DNA from: Trichodesmium erythraeum IMS101
GTDB lineage: Bacteria > Cyanobacteriota > Cyanobacteriia > Cyanobacteriales > Microcoleaceae
DNA length: 32,000 nucleotides
Direction: 5' to 3'
Assembly: GCF_000014265.1 (NCBI RefSeq)
Contig: NC_008312.1
Location: 1,680,001-1,712,000, forward strand
Shown here piece after piece: positions 23,525-32,000 of this stretch (positions are counted from its first letter, which is position 1; each line of letters opens with the position of its first letter). The position numbers and the translations under genes were made by a program. A model generated the notes under the pieces. That model saw nothing but the letters and a program-made list of their open reading frames with translations, did not search any database and had not been told where the DNA came from.

Positions 23525-23825
23525 GGGTAGGTAATAATTTAACACTACCCTCACCAAAAGAGTGATGGAATGTATTGGGTCAATCATAAAAAAGAATAAA
23601 GGATAAAGAATAATGACACTGGAATACAGTTGGTGATCAAATATGAAATATGAGACAAGCACATAGAAGCGCCAAAAATTAGTTACTCAGGTTCTGCAAA
23701 CAATCAACCCAAGGGTCATTGAAGATAATTCTTTGTCTTAGAAACTAGAGGTAATAATGAATCTGTATGAGCGCCTTCTAACACAACTCAAAGAATTATA
23801 AGAAAAAAAACAATCCCTAAAAGAT

Positions 23826-24919
23826 GCTTTGTTGCACAAAGCAAGGAAAGATGGTAAAAATAACAGTGGGTAGCACAAAATCCTGCATTAACTCTCCTTA
23901 TGAGTAAGTCTAAGTCTAAGTCCAAGTCTAAGTCCAAGTCCAAGTACCGGGTTAGCAACTGGTCGTATGGATGATGCCTCCTTAAAGCAGAGAGGGAGTC
24001 TGACATTTTGGCTAAGTTATGAAGTGATAGAACAGTGGGTAAATCAACATCAAACTGGGCGTCAGGGAGCATCGAATACCTATAGCGATGTAGCTATTGA
24101 ACTAATGGTCACTCTCAGTAGTTTGTTTGCAGGGCGGGGCGACAGACAGAAGGATTTGTAGAATCTATATTTGATTTTTAGAGATTAGATTTACCTGTAC
24201 CAGACCATAGCACTGTATGCCGTAGGGTCAGAAAACTAAATATCGGGATACCAGTGAGAACAAGGACAGAAGGGATGCATTTGGTAGTTGATTCTACAGG
24301 GGTCAAAGTCTACGGTGAAGGGGAATGGAAAACCAGGATTCATGGTGTAGGTAAACGTAGGACATGGCGTAAATTACTAGAGTGTGAATGAGGCCACCGG
24401 AGAGATTGTCACAGCAGTTGTCACAACCAATGATGTGAGTGACGACCAAGTATTTTCTGACCTATTAGATGGAGTAGAAGGTGAAATAGCCCAAGTTTCA
24501 GGTGATGGGGCTGATGACAAATACAAGTGCTATGAAACAGCTCACCAAAGAGGCATAAAAACGACCATTCCACCGCGTAAAAATGCTGTGATTAGGCAGC
24601 ATGGCAACTGTAAAGCCCTACCCGCTCCCAGAGATGAGAACCTCAGAGGAATTCGTCAAATAGGACGGCAAAAATGGAAGCATGAAAGTGGATACCATAG
24701 ACGCTCTCTATCTGAAACCACTATGTTTAGGTTCAAAGTTTTATTTGGTGGGAAGTTACGAAGACGATAATTTGATAATCAAGCAGTGGAGTTATTCATT
24801 CAATGCGCTATCCTGAACCCCATGATACAGAATGGTAAACCCGAAAGTTATCAAGTACACATCTAGAACTGCATCTCTCCAGGGAGTCATCTGCGATCGC
24901 AACATTCATACAACAAAGC
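23826..24919 (+). mobile_element. IS5-family insertion sequence remnant with an inactivated transposase (pseudo-CDS ~23900-24866)
   Basis: Transposase pieces lie in shifting frames: MSKSKSKSKSKSKSKYRVSNWS, a +1 shift into DDASLKQRGSLTFW, LVVDSTGVKVYGEGEWK, NEATGEIVTAVVTTNDVSDDQ...VSGDGADD...HRRSLSETTMFRFK, and an in-frame TAA (RRR*FDNQAVE). The candidate imperfect ends are gctttgttgca (23826) and tacaacaaagc (24919). The boundaries are approximate. Confidence 0.75.
23903..23944. repeat. Hexanucleotide microsatellite (AGTAAG, then TCYAAG x6) encoding (SK)7 at the IS5 transposase N-terminus
   Basis: Read directly: agtaag tctaag tctaag tccaag tctaag tccaag tccaag. The opposite strand gives the (DL)n run in the spurious ORF 23788..24072. 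Confidence 0.9.
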
Positions 24920-25503
24920 TATTATTAAGGTTAATTTTGCCTAAACCCATTTGATAATTGGCAGGAATAGTTTTTGATCATCAGCTTTCTGACTGGCTAG
25001 TCCGAAAAAATCTCATAAGTGATGATGCGCCTTAGTTTAAGTTACTTTCAGTATTGAGTTGGCTTTGTGTTGAGTACATCAGGGATCACATTATCAAATG
25101 TTAACTCTCAAGGTTAATTATCATCAAAAACTCCTCCAACAATTCTGGGATGATTTTTGGTCTGATACAGAGATTTACTGGCCGGGAACAGATACTCCCA
25201 TACTTTCGACTGCTTTAAGACTACCCTCTGAATTTTTAGAACTTTTCACAACTGTGAGTAGGTGATCAGCAGCTTGGTAGAACCAAAACGATTAACTGTT
25301 ACCCTGCATTTGAGAGTTGCTGTTGGTGTTGGAACATCCTCAATTGCCATTCCATAATAACCAGGTGCAGTTAGCTGCTTGAGCTATGTTGACTAAAAGC
25401 TATATAAGTTATAGAACTCAGACGATGGAGCAAACTGAATCTTGGGATATTTTTATGTTCCTGGTTGCTACTACTCGTAAGCTAAGATTAAGGTTTTTTA
25501 AAT

Positions 25504-26641
25504 AGACCTCTCCAAAATAGAAATTAAGGTAAAATTGTAGTGCCAAATTATATATATGCTGTCCCCAAATGAATAATGTATTAGAATATATTTATAATCA
25601 TCCATCCATATACAAAAAGGATTATTGGTATTACAGATAAACAACTAATAAAATTAATAGAAAATGCTCAAAAAGTTGAAGACAAAAAAAGACAGGCGAT
25701 CAAAGAAAGAAGAAAAAAAATTAATTAAGGCAGGAGGAGTCAGAAAAAAGTCTTTAGGCAAAGCGGAAGAGATAATTTTGACATTATATTATTTGCATCA
25801 TGTACCAACATTTCAACTGCTAGGAGCAATATTTGGAGTTAGTGAATCAACAGCAAATAATATTTTTCAGGCTTTGGAGCGATATTTTGATGGAATTATT
25901 ACCATCTAGTTTACTAGAGGAATTCTCGGGAAAAAAAACGAATATTTATGGATAAAAGAAGCTTTGACAGAAATAGAATTGATAGTTGATAGTACAGAAC
26001 AGGATATATTCAGGCCAAAAAATGATGGAAAGCAGAAAAAATATTACTCAGGAAAGCAAAAAAGTCATAGGTTAAAAAATCAAATAATAATCACAGATAA
26101 TGGAAAAAAAATAGTTGATGTAATAGTAGGAGAAAGAGGTCCAGAGAGTGATATAATTTTATTCAAAAAACAACAAAAAAAGTTTGATAAAGAACAAAGA
26201 TTTCAAGGAGATAAAGGTTATCAAGGTGGGTCAAGAATTGACAGGCCAAAGAAAAAAAAATAAACCATAAAATGTCATACAAAGTAAAGAAAGAGAATCA
26301 AAAAAAAGCTCAAAAAATAATATTTGTAGAACATGTAATAAGACTGATAAAAATATTTAAAGTGGCACGAGAAAGATTCAGATTAAAAGAGAGTAATTAT
26401 GAAAAAGTAATTTTAACAATATGTGGTTTAGTGAGATTAAGAGATTAAGCACTAATGTTAACATAAATCCTAACTTTAGGTCTAGTAAAAAGCAATAAAT
26501 AATTACATAAAAATGCTAAATAATTAACAATAACTATCTGTAATACTATAAATATCATAAAAAATGACTATCTAGAGGAGCTGGCGATCGCTCTGGAGAA
26601 GATAGTGACAGTAAGGGAAGTGATAATTTTTGGAGATGTCT
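25504..26641 (+). mobile_element. Second DDE_Tnp_4/Harbinger-like IS (AT-rich, transposase frameshifted; pseudo-CDS ~25569-26448)
   Basis: The termini are agacctctccaaaa (25504-) and tttttggagatgtct (-26641). The 3-bp duplication aat sits at 25501-25503 and 26642-26644. Transposase pieces include MNNVLEYIYNHPS..., ...LTLYYLHHVPTFQLLGAIFGVSESTANNIF..., ...ELIVDSTEQDIFRP...KYYSGKQKSHRLKNQ... and ...ICGLVRLRD*, spread over several frames. Confidence 0.85.
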
Positions 26642-26784: not shown

Positions 26785-27560
26785 GTTGGTTTATAATAGT
26801 TGACGTCATTAACACCTGTGAGATTTGAATCTATGCAATGTCCTGGCTGTGGCTGCCAGCATATCCGCAAAAATGGCCATCGACTAGGCAAGCAGAACTA
26901 TATTTGTGTCCCTTGTAGCCGTCAGTTCATCGAACCTTCTCACCCACCAGGATACAGCGATGATGTCAAAAGGCTGTGCTTGAGAATGTACGTTAACGGT
27001 ATGGGTATTAGAGGAATTGCGCGGGTGACAGGGATTACACATCCAACTATTATCAATTGAATCAAACACACCGGGGAACGCTTACCTGATGCCTTATACC
27101 CAGAGCAACTGCCTCAAGTAGGAGAACTTGATGAACTTGAAATTTTTGTTGGTTACTAAGAAAAACAAGGTATGGTTGTGGACTGCGCTAGACCATTTCC
27201 GTCCGAGAATTCTAGGTTTGGTAGTAGTAAACCACAGTGCTGATACTTTTCAACCGTTATGGCAGGCGATAGCCTTTTGGCAGTGTTACTTTTAGGTTAC
27301 TGATGGCAATGGGGTCGCTTCCAGGCTTTATCCCTGACGGAGATCAGATCGTAAGTAAGACCCATAATACCCGCGTAGAAGGGGAAAACACCAGTTTACG
27401 CTACCCCAAGGCCCGCTTACATCGTAAAACTTTGTGTTACTCAAAATGTATTAAAATGCTCAAACATTCTATCCGTCTGTTGATTCACGCTTCTCAAATT
27501 TGGAGAGGTGCCTATTGCGGCTTAATTCATCCCTTAATTTACCAACGCCTTTTTCTGAAA
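26785..27560 (+). mobile_element. IS1-family element remnant (InsA-like ORF intact; InsB-like part riddled with stops)
   Basis: The InsA-like part is MQCPGCGCQHIRKNGHRLGKQNYICVPCSRQF...MYVNGMGIRGIARVTGITHPTIIN*, a zinc finger plus HTH from the ATG at 26833. Broken InsB-like pieces follow: ELDELEIFVG, IVSKTHNTRVEGENTSLRY, ARLHRKTLCYSKCIKMLKHSIRLLIH. I could not verify terminal repeats, so the boundaries are approximate. Confidence 0.75.
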
Positions 27561-27586
27561 TCTATTGACGTTTTTTTCTGCTCCAA

Positions 27587-29560
27587 TTAGACTGACTCCT
27601 TAAAAACAAGTCTAACTTTTTGAACACCTTCTATCATTTGTAAGCCAAATTGACCAGAGGTAAATTCATCTTCATCTGAGCTGCTTAGAGTCTCCTTCAT
27701 TTGTGTAGCGAACTTTTGTAAATCAATCACTTCTTTTTCTTCATTCTTCCAAGGAATAGGAATAGAGTTTTCCATTAATTCTCCTTCACTATTTCGTAGA
27801 TTTTTTGACCATTCTGGAGAATCTTCCGTTGGTGCATCTAACCCAAAGTGCATTGACTCCGGTTGTAAGTGAATATCAACGGTTTTGATTTCTCCTTCAA
27901 ATAAACAAAGTAACACATCTTTAGCTAAGGTTTCCATTCGTAGTAGGGGTAAAAGATTGGCTTCTGTGGGGTCAATTGAATCTAAATCACTTACAACCTG
28001 ATCATATCCATCAACCAGTAAACCAGGCCAACCAGAAACTACTTGCGATCGCATAATAATTCCACTAATTGTTTTATTTTGCTGACGCAGAAAATTGTTA
28101 AGTTCTATAATTTTTTTATCGTCTGATAAATCACCTTTCGTAACACGACCAACACTAAACGCACCATCCTGTAAGCAGTCTATCCAAACAGAATCTAAAC
28201 AGAAGAAACGGATAGATTCTGGGGGTAATAAGCCCTCATCAGGTACTAAATAATTAAAAGGAACACCTTGTAATAATCCTAACCCTTGAAACCATTGTTT
28301 GACAGGGTTTGGGATAATTTTTTTTGTTTTGCTACTTGTGGAGTTAATTAGTCGTAAATGGGTCTGTTGTTGTTGCAAACGTTTGATATTCTGTACAACT
28401 TCTCGTTTCCATTTGAATAGTTGAACCGCTAACCCTTGATTTTCTAACATTAACATTCGACCTAATTGCCAAGCAGCAGAATAGGAAATATCAAACATTC
28501 CAATTTCGGAATCATAGCGTAATAGTTGATCCGATGCTTTCATAGGAAACTCATAGATTTCTTGTTCTTTATCATTAAAAGCTGTACCTAGGGGACTGCT
28601 ATACCAAGAATAGGTTTTACTTCCTTTTCGGAGGGAATGGGGAATAGTAACGTATCCTTTTTTTAAGTATTCTTCTGCTTTTTCATTATCACTTTTGGGA
28701 AGTCTTGGCGAGGAAGGAGCATGATTTAATCTTTGCAATAATTTGGTGAAACTTTGCTCAGGATCAATACAAGAAAATTCCCAACTCGCTAAACTAACAA
28801 AGCGAATTAAATCGTCTTCTTTTGCATCCATAAAATAAAATTTATTATTAGAATAACGCCCTTCTATTGACACTAAATAAACCGTACTTTTGCCACTGGG
28901 TTCGGGGAGACGATTACAAATAATTGTAGAATATTCTTTCTCAAGTAGCTTTAGATTTTCTTCTGATGCTGATGCTAGTAATCTTCGACGAACATGAGCA
29001 GTATAAGAAAGATCCTCGTAAGTTGGTAAAATGTCTTGAAGATATTTCTTTTTAACATCAATAACAGTCACTTGTTGGTTTGGCGTTTGTCCTAATTCTA
29101 ATACCATTGTAGGATATTTAATATTAGGAGAGTTTTCTGTAATTAATTCCGAAAGGGTAACATTTTTGGGTTTGGGTTTATCCTCTTCATTCCCGTCAAA
29201 ATCGCTTTCTCGGAATAATAATAAAATTAACCAAGGCAAGTTGTCATCTGTTTGTCCAGGGTAACGTTCCCAAGGCAAGGTACTTCTTTTAAAAGTAATA
29301 TGGGGTAAAACGTTGGAATGTTCTCCTAAACTTTCAGGGGGAGGAAAAACGGCATAAATATCATTAGGAGATAAGGGACCAAATCGTTCACCTTGGACAA
29401 CAAAAGTTAGTTCACGACTATAGGTTTTACCATTACCATTGTTATCAATTTTATCCCCTGCTTTGATGGTTTGTTCGACTTTTAAGTCATAAGTTCCACT
29501 TTCTAATGCAGGCTGATGGAATTGGATAAATTGAACTTTTCCTTTTTCAGTTGTTGGCAT
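27587..29560 (-). CDS. Large (657 aa) protein of unknown function, downstream partner of the tail-collar protein
   Basis: It is an uninterrupted ORF with the strong RBS aaggag 8 nt before the ATG at 29558-29560. I see no signal peptide, TM span, P-loop or metalloprotease motif. Notable blocks are RSTLPWERY...LPWLILLLF and GVPFNYLVPDEGLLPPESIRFFCLDSVWIDCLQDGAFSVGR. Confidence 0.8.
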   Translation of the reverse strand: MPTTEKGKVQFIQFHQPALESGTYDLKVEQTIKAGDKIDNNGNGKTYSRELTFVVQGERFGPLSPNDIYAVFPPPESLGEHSNVLPHITFKRSTLPWERYPGQTDDNLPWLILLLFRESDFDGNEEDKPKPKNVTLSELITENSPNIKYPTMVLELGQTPNQQVTVIDVKKKYLQDILPTYEDLSYTAHVRRRLLASASEENLKLLEKEYSTIICNRLPEPSGKSTVYLVSIEGRYSNNKFYFMDAKEDDLIRFVSLASWEFSCIDPEQSFTKLLQRLNHAPSSPRLPKSDNEKAEEYLKKGYVTIPHSLRKGSKTYSWYSSPLGTAFNDKEQEIYEFPMKASDQLLRYDSEIGMFDISYSAAWQLGRMLMLENQGLAVQLFKWKREVVQNIKRLQQQQTHLRLINSTSSKTKKIIPNPVKQWFQGLGLLQGVPFNYLVPDEGLLPPESIRFFCLDSVWIDCLQDGAFSVGRVTKGDLSDDKKIIELNNFLRQQNKTISGIIMRSQVVSGWPGLLVDGYDQVVSDLDSIDPTEANLLPLLRMETLAKDVLLCLFEGEIKTVDIHLQPESMHFGLDAPTEDSPEWSKNLRNSEGELMENSIPIPWKNEEKEVIDLQKFATQMKETLSSSDEDEFTSGQFGLQMIEGVQKVRLVFKESV

Positions 29561-29594
29561 GGGAATGACTCCTTTTTGTTAGTTTATAATTGAG

Positions 29595-29668
29595 TTGGTT
29601 GGGTTAGCAGTAACGTAACCAAACAAAAGGTTAATGGATGTTGGGTTTCACTTTGTTCAACCCAACCT
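29595..29668. repeat. Intercistronic palindromic repeat (GGTTGGGTT...AACCCAACC family) between the two large ORFs
   Basis: gttgggtt (29640-29647) and aacccaac (29659-29666) form a perfect 8-bp stem. An upstream ggttgggtta...taaccaaac forms a second hairpin, and that upstream ggttgggtt can alternatively pair with the downstream aacccaacc. The motif is the same as at 3141-3215. Confidence 0.65.
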
Positions 29669-29718
29669 AGTGTACAATTATGTTAATTATTTTACTTCAG
29701 TAGTTAGCCCACAAAAAA

Positions 29719-31734
29719 TTATGTTTTGATGATGTAATTAAGTGCATAATAAGGTGGTCGGTTTTCGAAAGGTTTATTGTTTCCTATTACCTGAAGAGCT
29801 TCACAAGAGCCAAGATTTGGCTCTCTGAGACTGTTATTAACATTGTTTGAGGTAGTCACTTTTCCATCCTTTTTTAAAATGAATTTATATTCACCCTTAC
29901 TATGATCATGGCTTGGCATTTCGTCTTTTGTTAACGTGTGCTTTTCTTCTCCGCCTTTGGCATTAAGACTGTAGGAGTAGCCATCTTTATCTCCAACACC
30001 GATGATAAATCTTCCTTTTAAATCTGGAAGAACCTTTATTTCATCAAGCACCTTGTATAATTCTGAATACTGCTCCCAGTCGTATGACTGACCATTGCAT
30101 AACAACCAACCTTCAGGGGCTGTTAAACCTGCATAAGGAACAATTGTCCCTACAGGAACGACCCAGCCAGTGCTATCTTTAATTCGTCCACACCCAACTT
30201 CTAGGTTACCTTCCTGATCAAGCAGCATCTGTGTGCGACCCCCATCACCAGGGGTTGTACTTGTTTCTTCATGACTACCTCCTAGATACCAAGCAAAGTA
30301 TCCGTTTGTTCGGAAATAAGTGGTATTGCCTTGTGTTCCAACTCCATACTCTGGACCCCATAAGTTAATTCTTTGTCCAGTCTGACCACTTTTGGCAGGA
30401 AATTGCAAATCACCGCGCGATGTTAATTCCATCAAGGGTAAGTCATTTTTCTGTTTATAAAATTTGACAGATATATCATCATTTGATGTATCGGTATCAG
30501 ACCGAAAAATCAAAGTGCCCGTGTGGTTAATTTCCCCTGGAGCATCTAGACTAATCCCATCTTTCACGGTGAGAAGTCCATCTAATGATTTGTTGGTTCC
30601 TATGCGGACTTTCTCATCAAAAACTAAGGGAGCTTTTTCAATTTGACAAACAAATTGTCCGTCTCGGTAACCATCAATATATTGATAGCGTAAATACAGG
30701 TTAGTCTCTCCTGTGGGGTGCGCTGTAGTAATACCATCCAAGTTAATTAACAAGGTTTCTTGCGAGTTTAAGACCACATCAGATTCTTGAGGAATAAACG
30801 TCCATTCCAAAGCCTTAGTTTGACCGTTAACCTGAATTTCTTCCGGACCATCACTAAGTTGCTGCCAATTATTAATAGTAATATTAACACCATTGACATC
30901 ATCTTGAGTACCTAATGCCCAAGGAACCGAATCTTTATCTCCTACTTCTAAAACAATCACTAACTGAGAACATTGATCCGAGTTTGCATTATAATTAAAG
31001 GTAATTGCTGAGTTATCTGCATTTGAAAGATTTGTGTTAGTAATTCGCAGTTGCAGACGGCTATTGTTATCGTGGGTATTGAAAACTTTATTAGAACCCA
31101 CAAAACCGACATAGAGAGGGATGTTAGATTTTCCAGATGTTTTTTTCATTTCTAATGTTAGGGTAGTTGTTGTATCATACGAATCATCTTGTCCAGGGAA
31201 TTTAACTTCCGCTATGCTAATGTTTTTCTCTCCAATTATCCAGTTAATGTTGACATCAGCGACTGCTCTGGCGCTAGCACTGTTATTAGCCAAATCAATA
31301 ACCTCTGTTAAGATAGCCTCTGTAGCACTGTTATTAGCCAAACCAGCAACCCCTGTTAAGATAACCTCTGTTTCTTGACCAGGGTTGAGGATTATTGGTG
31401 CTTCTGTCCACAATAAATACAAACACACATAGTTAGGATCTGTTTTGATATAAAGTGACCAACTTTCGGTTTCTTCAATCTTAATTTGGTCGGGATCAGC
31501 TAAAATTCCTGGCTGAAACGTTAATTTAAAATGATAATGTTCAGCACTAGCTATCGTTACCTCTGGAATGGAAGCAATTGTGATAACCTTATCAGAAAGA
31601 GTATTTCTGAGACCAATATGGAGTGGGGTAACTGTCTCAGGTGTTCCTAACAGTAAACATTGGCAATATTCTTCCTCATCTTCGTCTTCTGGCTCATAAC
31701 ACCAGAAAAACTCAAACGGCATTATGGGTGACAT
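29719..31734 (-). CDS. Phage tail-collar domain protein (671 aa; fibre/receptor-binding-like, MdpB-type C-terminus)
   Basis: The C-terminal ~144 aa (29722-30153) read VGTIVPYAG...PEGWLLCNGQSYDWEQYSELYKVL...LPDLKGRFIIGVG...GGEEKHTLTKDEMPSHDH...NRPPYYALNYII, which is the tail collar signature including HxH. The N-terminal ~520 aa look beta-rich and N/S/T-rich. The N-terminus is acidic, with no signal peptide. An aagga RBS lies ~9 nt before the ATG. Confidence 0.85.
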   Translation of the reverse strand: MSPIMPFEFFWCYEPEDEDEEEYCQCLLLGTPETVTPLHIGLRNTLSDKVITIASIPEVTIASAEHYHFKLTFQPGILADPDQIKIEETESWSLYIKTDPNYVCLYLLWTEAPIILNPGQETEVILTGVAGLANNSATEAILTEVIDLANNSASARAVADVNINWIIGEKNISIAEVKFPGQDDSYDTTTTLTLEMKKTSGKSNIPLYVGFVGSNKVFNTHDNNSRLQLRITNTNLSNADNSAITFNYNANSDQCSQLVIVLEVGDKDSVPWALGTQDDVNGVNITINNWQQLSDGPEEIQVNGQTKALEWTFIPQESDVVLNSQETLLINLDGITTAHPTGETNLYLRYQYIDGYRDGQFVCQIEKAPLVFDEKVRIGTNKSLDGLLTVKDGISLDAPGEINHTGTLIFRSDTDTSNDDISVKFYKQKNDLPLMELTSRGDLQFPAKSGQTGQRINLWGPEYGVGTQGNTTYFRTNGYFAWYLGGSHEETSTTPGDGGRTQMLLDQEGNLEVGCGRIKDSTGWVVPVGTIVPYAGLTAPEGWLLCNGQSYDWEQYSELYKVLDEIKVLPDLKGRFIIGVGDKDGYSYSLNAKGGEEKHTLTKDEMPSHDHSKGEYKFILKKDGKVTTSNNVNNSLREPNLGSCEALQVIGNNKPFENRPPYYALNYIIKT
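31276..31371. repeat. In-frame 48-nt tandem duplication (2 units) inside the tail-collar protein gene
   Basis: The units at 31276-31323 and 31324-31371 differ at 5 of 48 positions, all transitions. They encode TEVILTGVAGLANNSA and TEAILTEVIDLANNSA. Confidence 0.9.
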
Positions 31735-31810
31735 AAACTTAGTTCCTTCATATTAGTTATAAGTTGTATAGTATGCTTGATGACACTATATTGTTATTCT
31801 TTGATTAAGT

Positions 31811-31968
31811 CAATAGAGCTGTCGCTAAACAGAGGGAAAAATCGCTCTAACTTAGACGGAGCAAAAGTTTTATTTTTCTTGTTTTCCAATAGCTACAATC
31901 TTTGCTGAACTTGGTTTTAGGTGATTTTTTAAGTGATAAAGCGACAAGTCTAATGCTCCCCTTATACT
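31811..31968 (-). repeat. Right copy of the ~157-bp inverted repeat (partner at 23171-23327)
   Basis: The reverse complement of 31811-31968 aligns with 23171-23327. It lies 77-235 nt upstream of the tail-collar gene start, so it overlaps that gene's likely promoter and 5' UTR. Confidence 0.8.
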
Positions 31969-32000
31969 AAACTTAACCCAAACTTACATGGATCAGGAAT

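Follow-up and report, generated by a model that had tools for sequence, protein, structure and literature searches.

The 32,000-nt stretch of Trichodesmium erythraeum IMS101 DNA analyzed here (NC_008312.1, positions 1,680,001-1,712,000 of the forward strand; hereafter the window) ends inside a four-gene operon, A-B-D-C, which represents a delimited, expressed, and strongly conserved operon family that is absent from phage genomes and carries a chimeric fiber. D denotes the fiber protein (671 aa) and C the 657-aa product of the last gene; by exact sequence match, they are Tery_1091 and Tery_1090, respectively. A stands for the ~1300-aa product of the first gene (1316 aa in this organism) and B for a protein of the family DUF6603 (1107 aa). 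The operon family is uncharacterized, and its three large proteins, A, B, and C, provisionally resemble, on sequence grounds, nothing that has been characterized. We give an even chance to the reading that the operon specifies a new fiber-guided surface-recognition or delivery complex whose parts are unrelated to phage tails.

On contigs identical to the window, two further co-directional genes lie beyond position 32000, encoding the DUF6603 protein and the 1316-aa protein, and on three independent Trichodesmium contigs of ~13.4 kb (L001, L017, and L018) A, B, D, and C are the sole genes called. The pair seen in the window is the last two genes, D and C, of this operon. A preliminary description of the same DNA had presented the pair as a stand-alone two-gene module, an artefact that arises because the window edge cuts the operon; genes A and B, immediately upstream, contradict it. 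The two co-directional minus-strand open reading frames (ORFs) of 671 and 657 aa, with a gap of 158 nt, have exactly the coordinates that had been assigned to them. The accompanying statement that no other intact gene lies between pgm and the window end holds inside the window but is misleading, as the operon runs on past 32000; inspection of that flank revealed genes A and B and no prophage or extracellular contractile injection system (eCIS) cluster.

The same gene set is found in other genomes. A Microcoleaceae metagenome-assembled genome has the order A-B-D-C; in Cylindrospermum PCC 7417 the order is A, a carbohydrate-binding module (CBM) protein, D, a kinase-like gene, B, and C, and in Microcystis NIES-298 it is A, a small ORF, D, D, B, and C. 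Further examples come from a second Microcystis type, Desmonostoc, Archangium violaceum, and Kouleothrix (Chloroflexota), and in each of these cyanobacterial, myxobacterial, and Kouleothrix loci the operon opens with A and closes with C. The surrounding genes are unrelated, FHA-kinase, TauD, TsaD, tRNA synthetase, and TetR/ABC genes being among them. Directly after A, an ORF of 60 to 64 aa was noticed in Microcystis and Kouleothrix (L005:1640-1834 and L011:14143-14325); they share 62% identity across 32 aa (E = 2e-10), belong to no family, and may constitute a small fifth component of some versions. Another candidate for a fifth small component, a pair of proteins of 157 and 171 aa in Gram-positive loci with an AGC[DN]V motif, was dropped, their similarity not being significant (E = 0.016).

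For a neighborhood test, 80 metagenome loci were obtained by a scan with the C profile, and their six-frame ORFs were compared to hidden Markov models (HMMs) of A, B, C, and the N-terminal anchor of D. The sequence upstream of C reached 1 kb or more in 63 loci, and B was present in 61 of these. Where at least 9 kb was available upstream (36 loci), B was found in all 36 and D in 32, which answers the question, raised earlier, whether homologs of the pair stay neighbors: D is found with C in the same operon. A was detected in 25 of these 36, this gene often lying beyond the fetched flank in metagenome loci. All A, B, and D matches in the 80 loci were on the same strand as C. The commonest order was A-D-B-C (24 loci), with A-B-D-C only in close relatives of Trichodesmium; direct adjacency of D and C is limited to the Trichodesmium clade, and A-D-(enzyme)-B-C is the usual arrangement. 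Clustering of the ORFs from the 80 loci revealed no other recurrent neighbor family, and no downstream family was found in more than 5 of them. With B, A, and the D anchor on the same strand as C, the Trichodesmium locus belongs to the A-D-B-C operon family.

The C family spans Cyanobacteriota, Myxococcota, Chloroflexota, Actinomycetota, and Bacillota. By tblastn against plasmids, C was found in Streptomyces, Embleya, Kitasatospora, and Paenibacillus. Streptomyces and Embleya have the genes in the order B-C-A, Paenibacillus has C-A, and a D-type fiber was undetectable in the loci of these three. From these Gram-positive gene orders, A and C thus emerge as the pair with the greatest constancy and B is nearly constant, and D belongs to the cyanobacterial, myxobacterial, and Chloroflexota versions. 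Altogether, A, B, and C are the constant core of the operon family. These data bear directly on the idea of a module made of a fiber and one dedicated partner. In Trichodesmium, D and C are indeed adjacent, co-directional, and co-regulated (see below); against this, two more conserved genes lie immediately upstream, C is linked to B in 61/63 loci, usually with B between C and D, and in Gram-positive bacteria C occurs with A but without D. The constant partners of C are thus A and B, with D variable, and the casting of the 657-aa protein as the dedicated partner of the fiber is not sustained; we regard a two-gene module as very improbable.

D can be divided into an anchor, a shaft, and a tip (Table 1). 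Every motif quoted earlier for this 671-aa protein was recovered, the HxH pair included, and the positions in D are aa 13 for YEPEDEDEEEYCQC, aa 542 for GWLLCNGQ, aa 569 for LPDLKGRF, aa 599 for HTLT, aa 605 for EMPSHDH, and aa 660 for PPYYALNYII. The assignment of the tip to the gp12 or short-tail-fiber type is supported by four kinds of evidence, i.e., the Collar HMM, a solved structure, PHROG families, and phage records. The Pfam Collar profile (PF07484) matched over its full length (positions 1-57) with an E value of 4e-13 and 49.5 bits, compared to a cutoff of 24. A total of 21 PHROG families matched the C-terminal third of D, the majority annotated as tail or tail fiber, with tail-fiber matches beginning at ~aa 481; PHROG 523 and PHROG 1800, both 'tail collar fiber protein', reached E values of 7e-21 and 2e-20, respectively. 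In a PDB profile search the solved 'short tail fiber' 9cuy aligned to aa 514-671 (E = 4e-11), and aa 471-671 matched annotated tail fibers in 973 phage records. A match to Gp10_C was weak (19 bits, under the cutoff of 27). In T4 gp12, the HxH pair binds the axial metal.

The remainder of D behaves differently from the tip. Its N-terminal ~370 aa have homologs in the fiber-like genes of every locus examined from Cyanobacteriota, Myxococcota, and Chloroflexota; by BLASTP, the Trichodesmium anchor matched that of Archangium with an E value of 2e-33 and that of Kouleothrix with 2e-28, and an alignment of ten D proteins from three phyla contained 17 invariant columns, conservation being lost after column ~460. 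The anchor had no match in the PDB profile search, and a tblastn search of 50,697 phage genomes with aa 1-450 was likewise empty. Tips, in turn, vary: the Collar type is found in Trichodesmium, Cylindrospermum, and Microcystis type 2, and a Peptidase_S74 chaperone tip in Microcystis, with a Laminin_G_3 lectin as an N-terminal extension of D in the type-2 loci and a separate CBM_4_9 gene adjoining D in Cylindrospermum. D often occurs as two or three paralogs, with three tandem D genes in each of L015 and L026, and the two D genes in tandem in Microcystis share 90% identity across aa 1-475, beyond which they diverge. Altogether, these comparisons identify D as a chimera of a ~370-aa anchor exclusive to this system, a shaft, and an exchangeable phage-type, predicted receptor-binding tip. 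Such a design, in which the anchor stays constant and the tips are swapped, is the hallmark of receptor-binding proteins and suggests that D is mounted on a fixed platform. Where the mounting site may be is indicated by P0274 (1819 aa, L015:10001-15460), an in-frame fusion, found on two contigs, of B aa 6-1092 with a complete D from aa 1098; its D part comprises anchor and Collar, and two more D paralogs and then C follow downstream. This fusion suggests that D is mounted at the C-terminus of B.

Table 1. Coordinates of the genes, fiber regions, spacers, and other features discussed in the text; L-prefixed positions refer to loci outside the window
Feature	Position	Strand	Remarks
Gene D, Tery_1091	29719..31734	-	671 aa, ATG start; fiber protein of the operon
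D anchor, residues 1-375	30610..31734	-	conserved MPFxF..YE acidic motif at start, QIEKxPL at end
D shaft, residues 376-513	30196..30609	-	opens at V(G/R)IGT, a motif typical of fiber repeats
D tip, residues 514-671	29722..30195	-	short-tail-fiber type
Collar domain within D tip	aa 529-577, nt 30004-30150	-	PF07484
HxH of D tip	aa 609-611 (H609-D-H611), nt 29902-29910	-	motif position
Gene C, Tery_1090	27587..29560	-	657 aa, ATG start; last gene in the operon
D-C spacer	29561..29718	-	158 nt; AAGGAG ribosome-binding site of C and ~75-nt hairpin repeat
B-D spacer, first 266 of 419 nt	31735..32000	-	gene coordinates on identical contigs L001, L017, L018
IS1-type transposase fragment	27303..27590	+	DDE_Tnp_IS1, E = 5e-6, profile positions 75-123 of 131
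Slot gene examples	L006:5209-6216; L011:17874-19283; L034:3573-5426		
Further slot gene examples	L067:3082-5196; L063:3067-4170; L004:5652-6755		

Compared to phage short and side tail fibers (T4 gp12, PF07484, 9cuy, and HK97 Stf), D is homologous over its last ~160-200 aa. As in phage Collar fibers, the tip is terminal, the HxH pair follows the collar, and tips are exchanged between loci. The N-terminal part of the phage proteins, however, docks to the baseplate, whereas the ~450 aa of D at this place are specific to the operon family and without phage homolog, and the D gene is not accompanied by phage or tail genes. D as a whole is thus not a phage tail fiber: aa 1-450 are unmatched in phages, and its neighbors A, B, and C are absent from them as well.

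Genes for sheath, tube, spike (VgrG/PAAR), gp25-like, Baseplate_J, tape-measure, and AAA+ proteins were not found in the window, as had been reported for sheath, tube, baseplate, and capsid genes, nor in the flanks of 10 related loci, which were annotated with Pfam over up to 10 kb. Like the D anchor, A, B, and C gave no tblastn match in the 50,697 phage genomes, in keeping with the earlier view that the locus is not prophage debris, and no relative turned up when IMG/VR was scanned by pattern with the C profile. The operon does share features with eCIS and tailocins (Afp, PVC, and R-pyocin, with Afp13-type fibers): these are chromosomal, non-phage operons with phage-type fibers and diversified tips, variable effector genes are often adjacent, the proteins lack signal peptides, and the systems occur in cyanobacteria, myxobacteria, and Streptomyces. 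The difference is that the genes that define contractile injection systems (CIS) are absent at the A-B-D-C loci and that the core proteins have neither sequence nor predicted-fold similarity to CIS parts. The homology of the D tip to phage short and side tail fibers and the sub-cutoff Gp10_C match would fit a prophage, tailocin, or eCIS remnant or satellite, or a set of parts serving an unlinked contractile system. Such an origin is nevertheless highly unlikely given the lack of A, B, C, and the D anchor in phage genomes, the empty IMG/VR scan, the missing contractile-system genes in the window and the related flanks, and Foldseek searches with C and B that gave no baseplate protein.

Gene A, which belongs to no family, yielded no consistent matches when searched as a single sequence against Pfam and PHROGs, with Pfam on 29 family members, or by PDB profile, and a contig scan with gene A returned its source contig only. 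Gene B (L017:4489-7812) is a full-length member of DUF6603 (PF20248), matching profile positions 1-501 of 502 with an E value of 1e-116; Pfam labels the family only 'domain of unknown function'. In the openly accessible literature, to which this search was directed, we found no mention of DUF6603 or of its linkage to A, C, and a fiber, and no description of the operon system beyond the DUF6603 label and one proteomics paper from 2016. An AlphaFold2 (AF2) model of B, with a predicted local distance difference test score (pLDDT) of 68 and a predicted template modeling score (pTM) of 0.45, consists almost entirely of a meander of long antiparallel strands. Its best Foldseek matches were sheets and barrels of ApoB100, vitellogenin, LptD, an usher, and a porin (E values of 2e-3 or higher, template modeling scores of ~0.1); we rejected them as homology and take them as a generic resemblance among very large beta-sheet proteins. 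A PDB profile search with B was without result. The N-terminal ~350 aa of B are far less conserved than the rest, and many close homologs cover only 68% of the query; residues 297-393 are predicted to be disordered. The weakly conserved N-terminus therefore suggests that B, too, has a variable N-terminal module. Profile-profile comparisons of A with C, B with C, and B with A detected no relationship, and a candidate N-terminal 'LPW/WL' module shared by A and C was rejected by the same method.

C proved equally hard to place. It had 621 homologs, and its profile retrieved 5208 clusters (representatives at 50% identity) at an E value of 1e-3 or lower and 2921 at 1e-30 or lower. The preliminary description had argued for selection on D and C from their being intact amid decaying neighbors, which is a weak argument; the genes are nonetheless under selection, because the listed cyanobacterial and myxobacterial homologs of C share 46-48% identity and the family has thousands of members, i.e., it is conserved across phyla. 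C itself had no match in Pfam, NCBIfam, PHROGs, PADLOC, or the PDB sequence profile search, none of the 120 listed homologs contained a Pfam domain, and scanning of ten long homologs (903-1061 aa) revealed no fused domains. The AF2 model of C, built from 48 sequences (pLDDT 78, pTM 0.67), is a mixed alpha/beta multi-domain structure with one long helical hairpin, and Foldseek comparison of this model with the PDB and BFVD gave nothing below an E value of 0.06. The sequence-family, PDB-profile, and Foldseek searches were thus all empty, consistent with the earlier remark that the 657-aa protein fits no family. On the present models, C and B provisionally show no known fold.

In many loci, D and B are separated by one additional gene, whose family varies from locus to locus. 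This slot is occupied by an MBL-fold hydrolase in ~12 loci, by a ~610-aa Exo_endo_phos protein in 3, and by an EcKL/APH kinase-like protein in 2, and a DUF4135 protein, a GNAT-TPR protein, and ~500-aa proteins of no recognized family were also found there; the slot gene is absent from the Trichodesmium operon. In Microcystis aeruginosa CP046973, two Uma2 + nucleotidyltransferase (NTP_transf_2/Polbeta) pairs and a DUF2283 gene split the operon by separating D from the MBL gene (L010:17318-20435), and these genes resemble inserted cassettes of a toxin-antitoxin-like type.

Expression of the operon is documented by Walworth et al. 2016 (PMC4931248), who detected Tery_1090 by proteomics, found it raised only under iron and phosphorus (Fe/P) co-limitation, and took it as 'EzrA-domain' evidence for cell-size control. 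According to the supplementary tables of that study, Tery_1091 was also detected, and both proteins were 'up' in all three Fe/P co-limitation contrasts. In these data, the abundances of D and C were correlated over 24 samples (r = 0.88), compared to 0.08-0.28 for two arbitrary control proteins, and the mean D:C abundance ratio was 2.3. Tery_1092 and Tery_1093 were not among the entries in the part of the supplement that was searched, an observation of little weight. That Tery_1090 and the fiber Tery_1091 are induced jointly suggests that the cells respond to nutrient stress by surface interaction or conflict. The alternative given in PMC4931248, that Tery_1090 is an EzrA-like regulator of cell size, draws on a reported web BLASTx/CDD match to pfam06160 and on the higher Tery_1090 abundance under Fe/P co-limitation, when the cells were smaller. 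Our hmmscan against Pfam-A at E values up to 1, however, gave no EzrA (PF06160); Tery_1090 lacks an N-terminal transmembrane anchor, its AF2 model, of mixed alpha/beta type, has one helical hairpin only and no spectrin-like repeats, and its gene lies within a fiber operon. An EzrA-like role is therefore extremely unlikely.

The broader proposal of an uncharacterized, selected, non-prophage recognition or conflict locus is upheld by these results: C has no hit in a characterized family, A and B occupy the flank past the window, and homologs of D and C are found together. Going further, the A-B-D-C set may be an unrecognized class of machine, a three-protein chassis without relatives among phage tails, secretion systems, or toxin complexes that has captured phage tips and, in many lineages, exchangeable enzymes and acts on other cells, a model we consider plausible though short of an even chance. 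In the fiber-guided complex to which we give an even chance, A, B, and C would assemble as the chassis, on which D would dock via its N-terminal anchor, beside the C-terminus of B. D would probably be a trimer, by analogy with Collar fibers; the D:C ratio of 2.3:1 is compatible with this and is no proof of it. The tip of D, whether of Collar type, S74-chaperoned, or joined by lectin or CBM modules in other lineages, would bind a surface glycan or surface protein of another cell, whether foreign or sister, and the slot enzyme (MBL-fold, EEP, kinase-like, or GNAT) would be the cargo or effector in many lineages. B, predicted to form a huge antiparallel beta-sheet, is the best candidate for a shell or for a part that contacts membrane or lipid.

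Several observations weigh against a fiber-guided complex of this kind. By heuristic criteria, no system protein has a signal peptide or transmembrane segment, so that the export route is unexplained; for C and D, as claimed before, no 19-mer exceeded 1.4 on the Kyte-Doolittle scale and neither N-terminus was signal-like. No secretion, lysis, or ATPase gene is linked to the operon. We infer the assembly of A, B, C, and D from gene linkage and one fusion. Gram-positive versions without a detectable D indicate that the fiber is not essential to the core function, and since the Trichodesmium operon has no enzyme gene, 'delivery' may not apply there. The AF2 models are of moderate quality (pLDDT 78 and 68), which is why the statement on folds is provisional, and the proteomic signal came from cells, not supernatant.

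Non-contractile multi-protein particles with very large subunits, receptor-binding or lectin modules, and an exchangeable toxic enzyme are known as Tc (ABC) toxins and as the umbrella particles of Streptomyces. B, as a predicted very large, loosely shell-like beta-sheet protein, is reminiscent of these. Foldseek with B, however, gave XptA2 at a probability of 0.04 only and no RHS or TcB cocoon, and the slot enzymes are separate genes rather than C-terminal toxin domains; Pfam matches to the Tc signature domains VRP1, SpvB, TcdB_toxin_mid, and RHS repeats were absent from A, B, C, and D.

An intracellular role was considered as well, in which A, B, and C would form a cytoplasmic sensor or scaffold for anti-phage defense or another conflict, the slot enzyme would be the effector, and D would mimic, trap, or sense phage parts. 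The absence of signal peptides, the abundance of the proteins in cells, and a variable enzymatic slot of the kind typical of defense effectors fit this picture, as do McrBC 3.5 kb downstream in L007, the Uma2/nucleotidyltransferase pairs inserted in the Microcystis operon, and the helicases and PLD-like gene that surround the Paenibacillus locus. Most loci, however, are flanked by housekeeping genes; PADLOC-DB v2 gave 0 families for B, C, and D at E values up to 0.1, so that no PADLOC model matches them; the core has no NTPase or recognizable nuclease; and the Trichodesmium operon contains no effector gene. Moreover, lectin, CBM, and Collar tips with tandem paralogs are a signature of extracellular receptor binding. 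We therefore judge defense unlikely, while keeping it as a serious contender.

Kin recognition or adhesion would assign the polymorphic D tips to the attachment of cells or particles with no toxin delivery, for instance in colony formation or dust capture by Trichodesmium. The named carriers are mostly filamentous, colonial, or developmental organisms (Trichodesmium, Microcystis, Nostocales, Moorena, myxobacteria, Kouleothrix, and Streptomyces), as also remarked in PMC4931248, and such a role would agree with the polymorphism of the tips, the missing enzyme gene in Trichodesmium, and the rise of D and C under Fe/P co-limitation. It is less easily reconciled with the lack of an export signal or membrane anchor and with the enzyme gene in many loci, and three very large conserved proteins seem excessive for an adhesin; we rate adhesion, too, as unlikely but worth serious attention.

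Some features of the intergenic regions and the surroundings complete the description of the Trichodesmium locus. A GGAG-type ribosome-binding site had been claimed for both genes; this is correct for C (AAGGAG, 8 nt 5' of the ATG) and only approximate for D, which has the weaker GAAGGAA. On the identical contigs L001, L017, and L018, the stop codon of gene B lies ~150 nt past the window end. The B-D spacer contains a sigma-70-like site at 31813..31785 with a 10/12 promoter-like match, and the count of promoter-like matches in this region was not above that of shuffled sequence. The D-C spacer contains an extended hairpin repeat of ~75 nt (29595-29669, minus strand; TAGGTTGGGTTGA...AAACCCAAC...GCTAACCCAACC), which is kept at the same position in L007 and L019, with compensatory changes at two pairs and a fold z-score of only -1.2. 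Its 13-mer core was found elsewhere, 5' of gene A in Microcystis (L010), 3' of C in L019, and in L021. We considered an operon-specific RNA element and dropped it: the hairpin is kept in three loci, but its core also stands at unrelated places, so that it is probably a small dispersed cyanobacterial repeat.

Downstream, the operon borders on the remains of insertion sequences (IS). Truncated transposase pieces between pgm and gene C were confirmed by Pfam-type matches (DDE_Tnp_1_5, DDE_Tnp_1, HTH_Tnp_4/DDE_Tnp_4, and DDE_Tnp_IS1), in line with the dead IS DNA described before. There is a 4-nt overlap between the IS1-type fragment and the stop codon of gene C; this junction is where the operon ends downstream in Trichodesmium, and it is also present on the metagenomic Trichodesmium contigs L002 and L003. 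Split IS fragments were seen at 23967-26263 on the plus strand, with DDE_Tnp_1_5/DDE_Tnp_1 matches and with HTH_Tnp_4 and DDE_Tnp_4 spread across two ORFs, and an ORF in the debris (23788-24072, minus strand) contains the translated run DLDLDLDLDLDL, which marks a short tandem DNA repeat. At 863-1613 on the minus strand, a PemK/MazF-type toxin ORF of 130 aa overlaps an upstream 130-aa ORF without family, and the two are probably a toxin-antitoxin pair. The remaining genes of the window are ordinary chromosomal ones, e.g., metH, a PhzF-like gene, and an ABC-2 transporter, and no phage or CIS genes were found among them.

Even if defense or adhesion should turn out to be its role, the A-B-D-C gene set is clearly delimited, expressed, and open to direct experiment. 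For Trichodesmium, the analysis reinterprets the 'EzrA-like' cell-size protein of the 2016 study (PMC4931248). If the model of a fiber-bearing machine is true, a whole class of such apparatus, present in thousands of bacterial lineages and with a core named by one DUF only, would have been overlooked. It would provide a new chassis in which targeting tips and cargo are exchanged naturally, comparable to those now engineered from eCIS, and it would represent a new route of recognition or attack for bloom-forming cyanobacteria (Trichodesmium and Microcystis), predatory myxobacteria, and antibiotic-producing actinomycetes.

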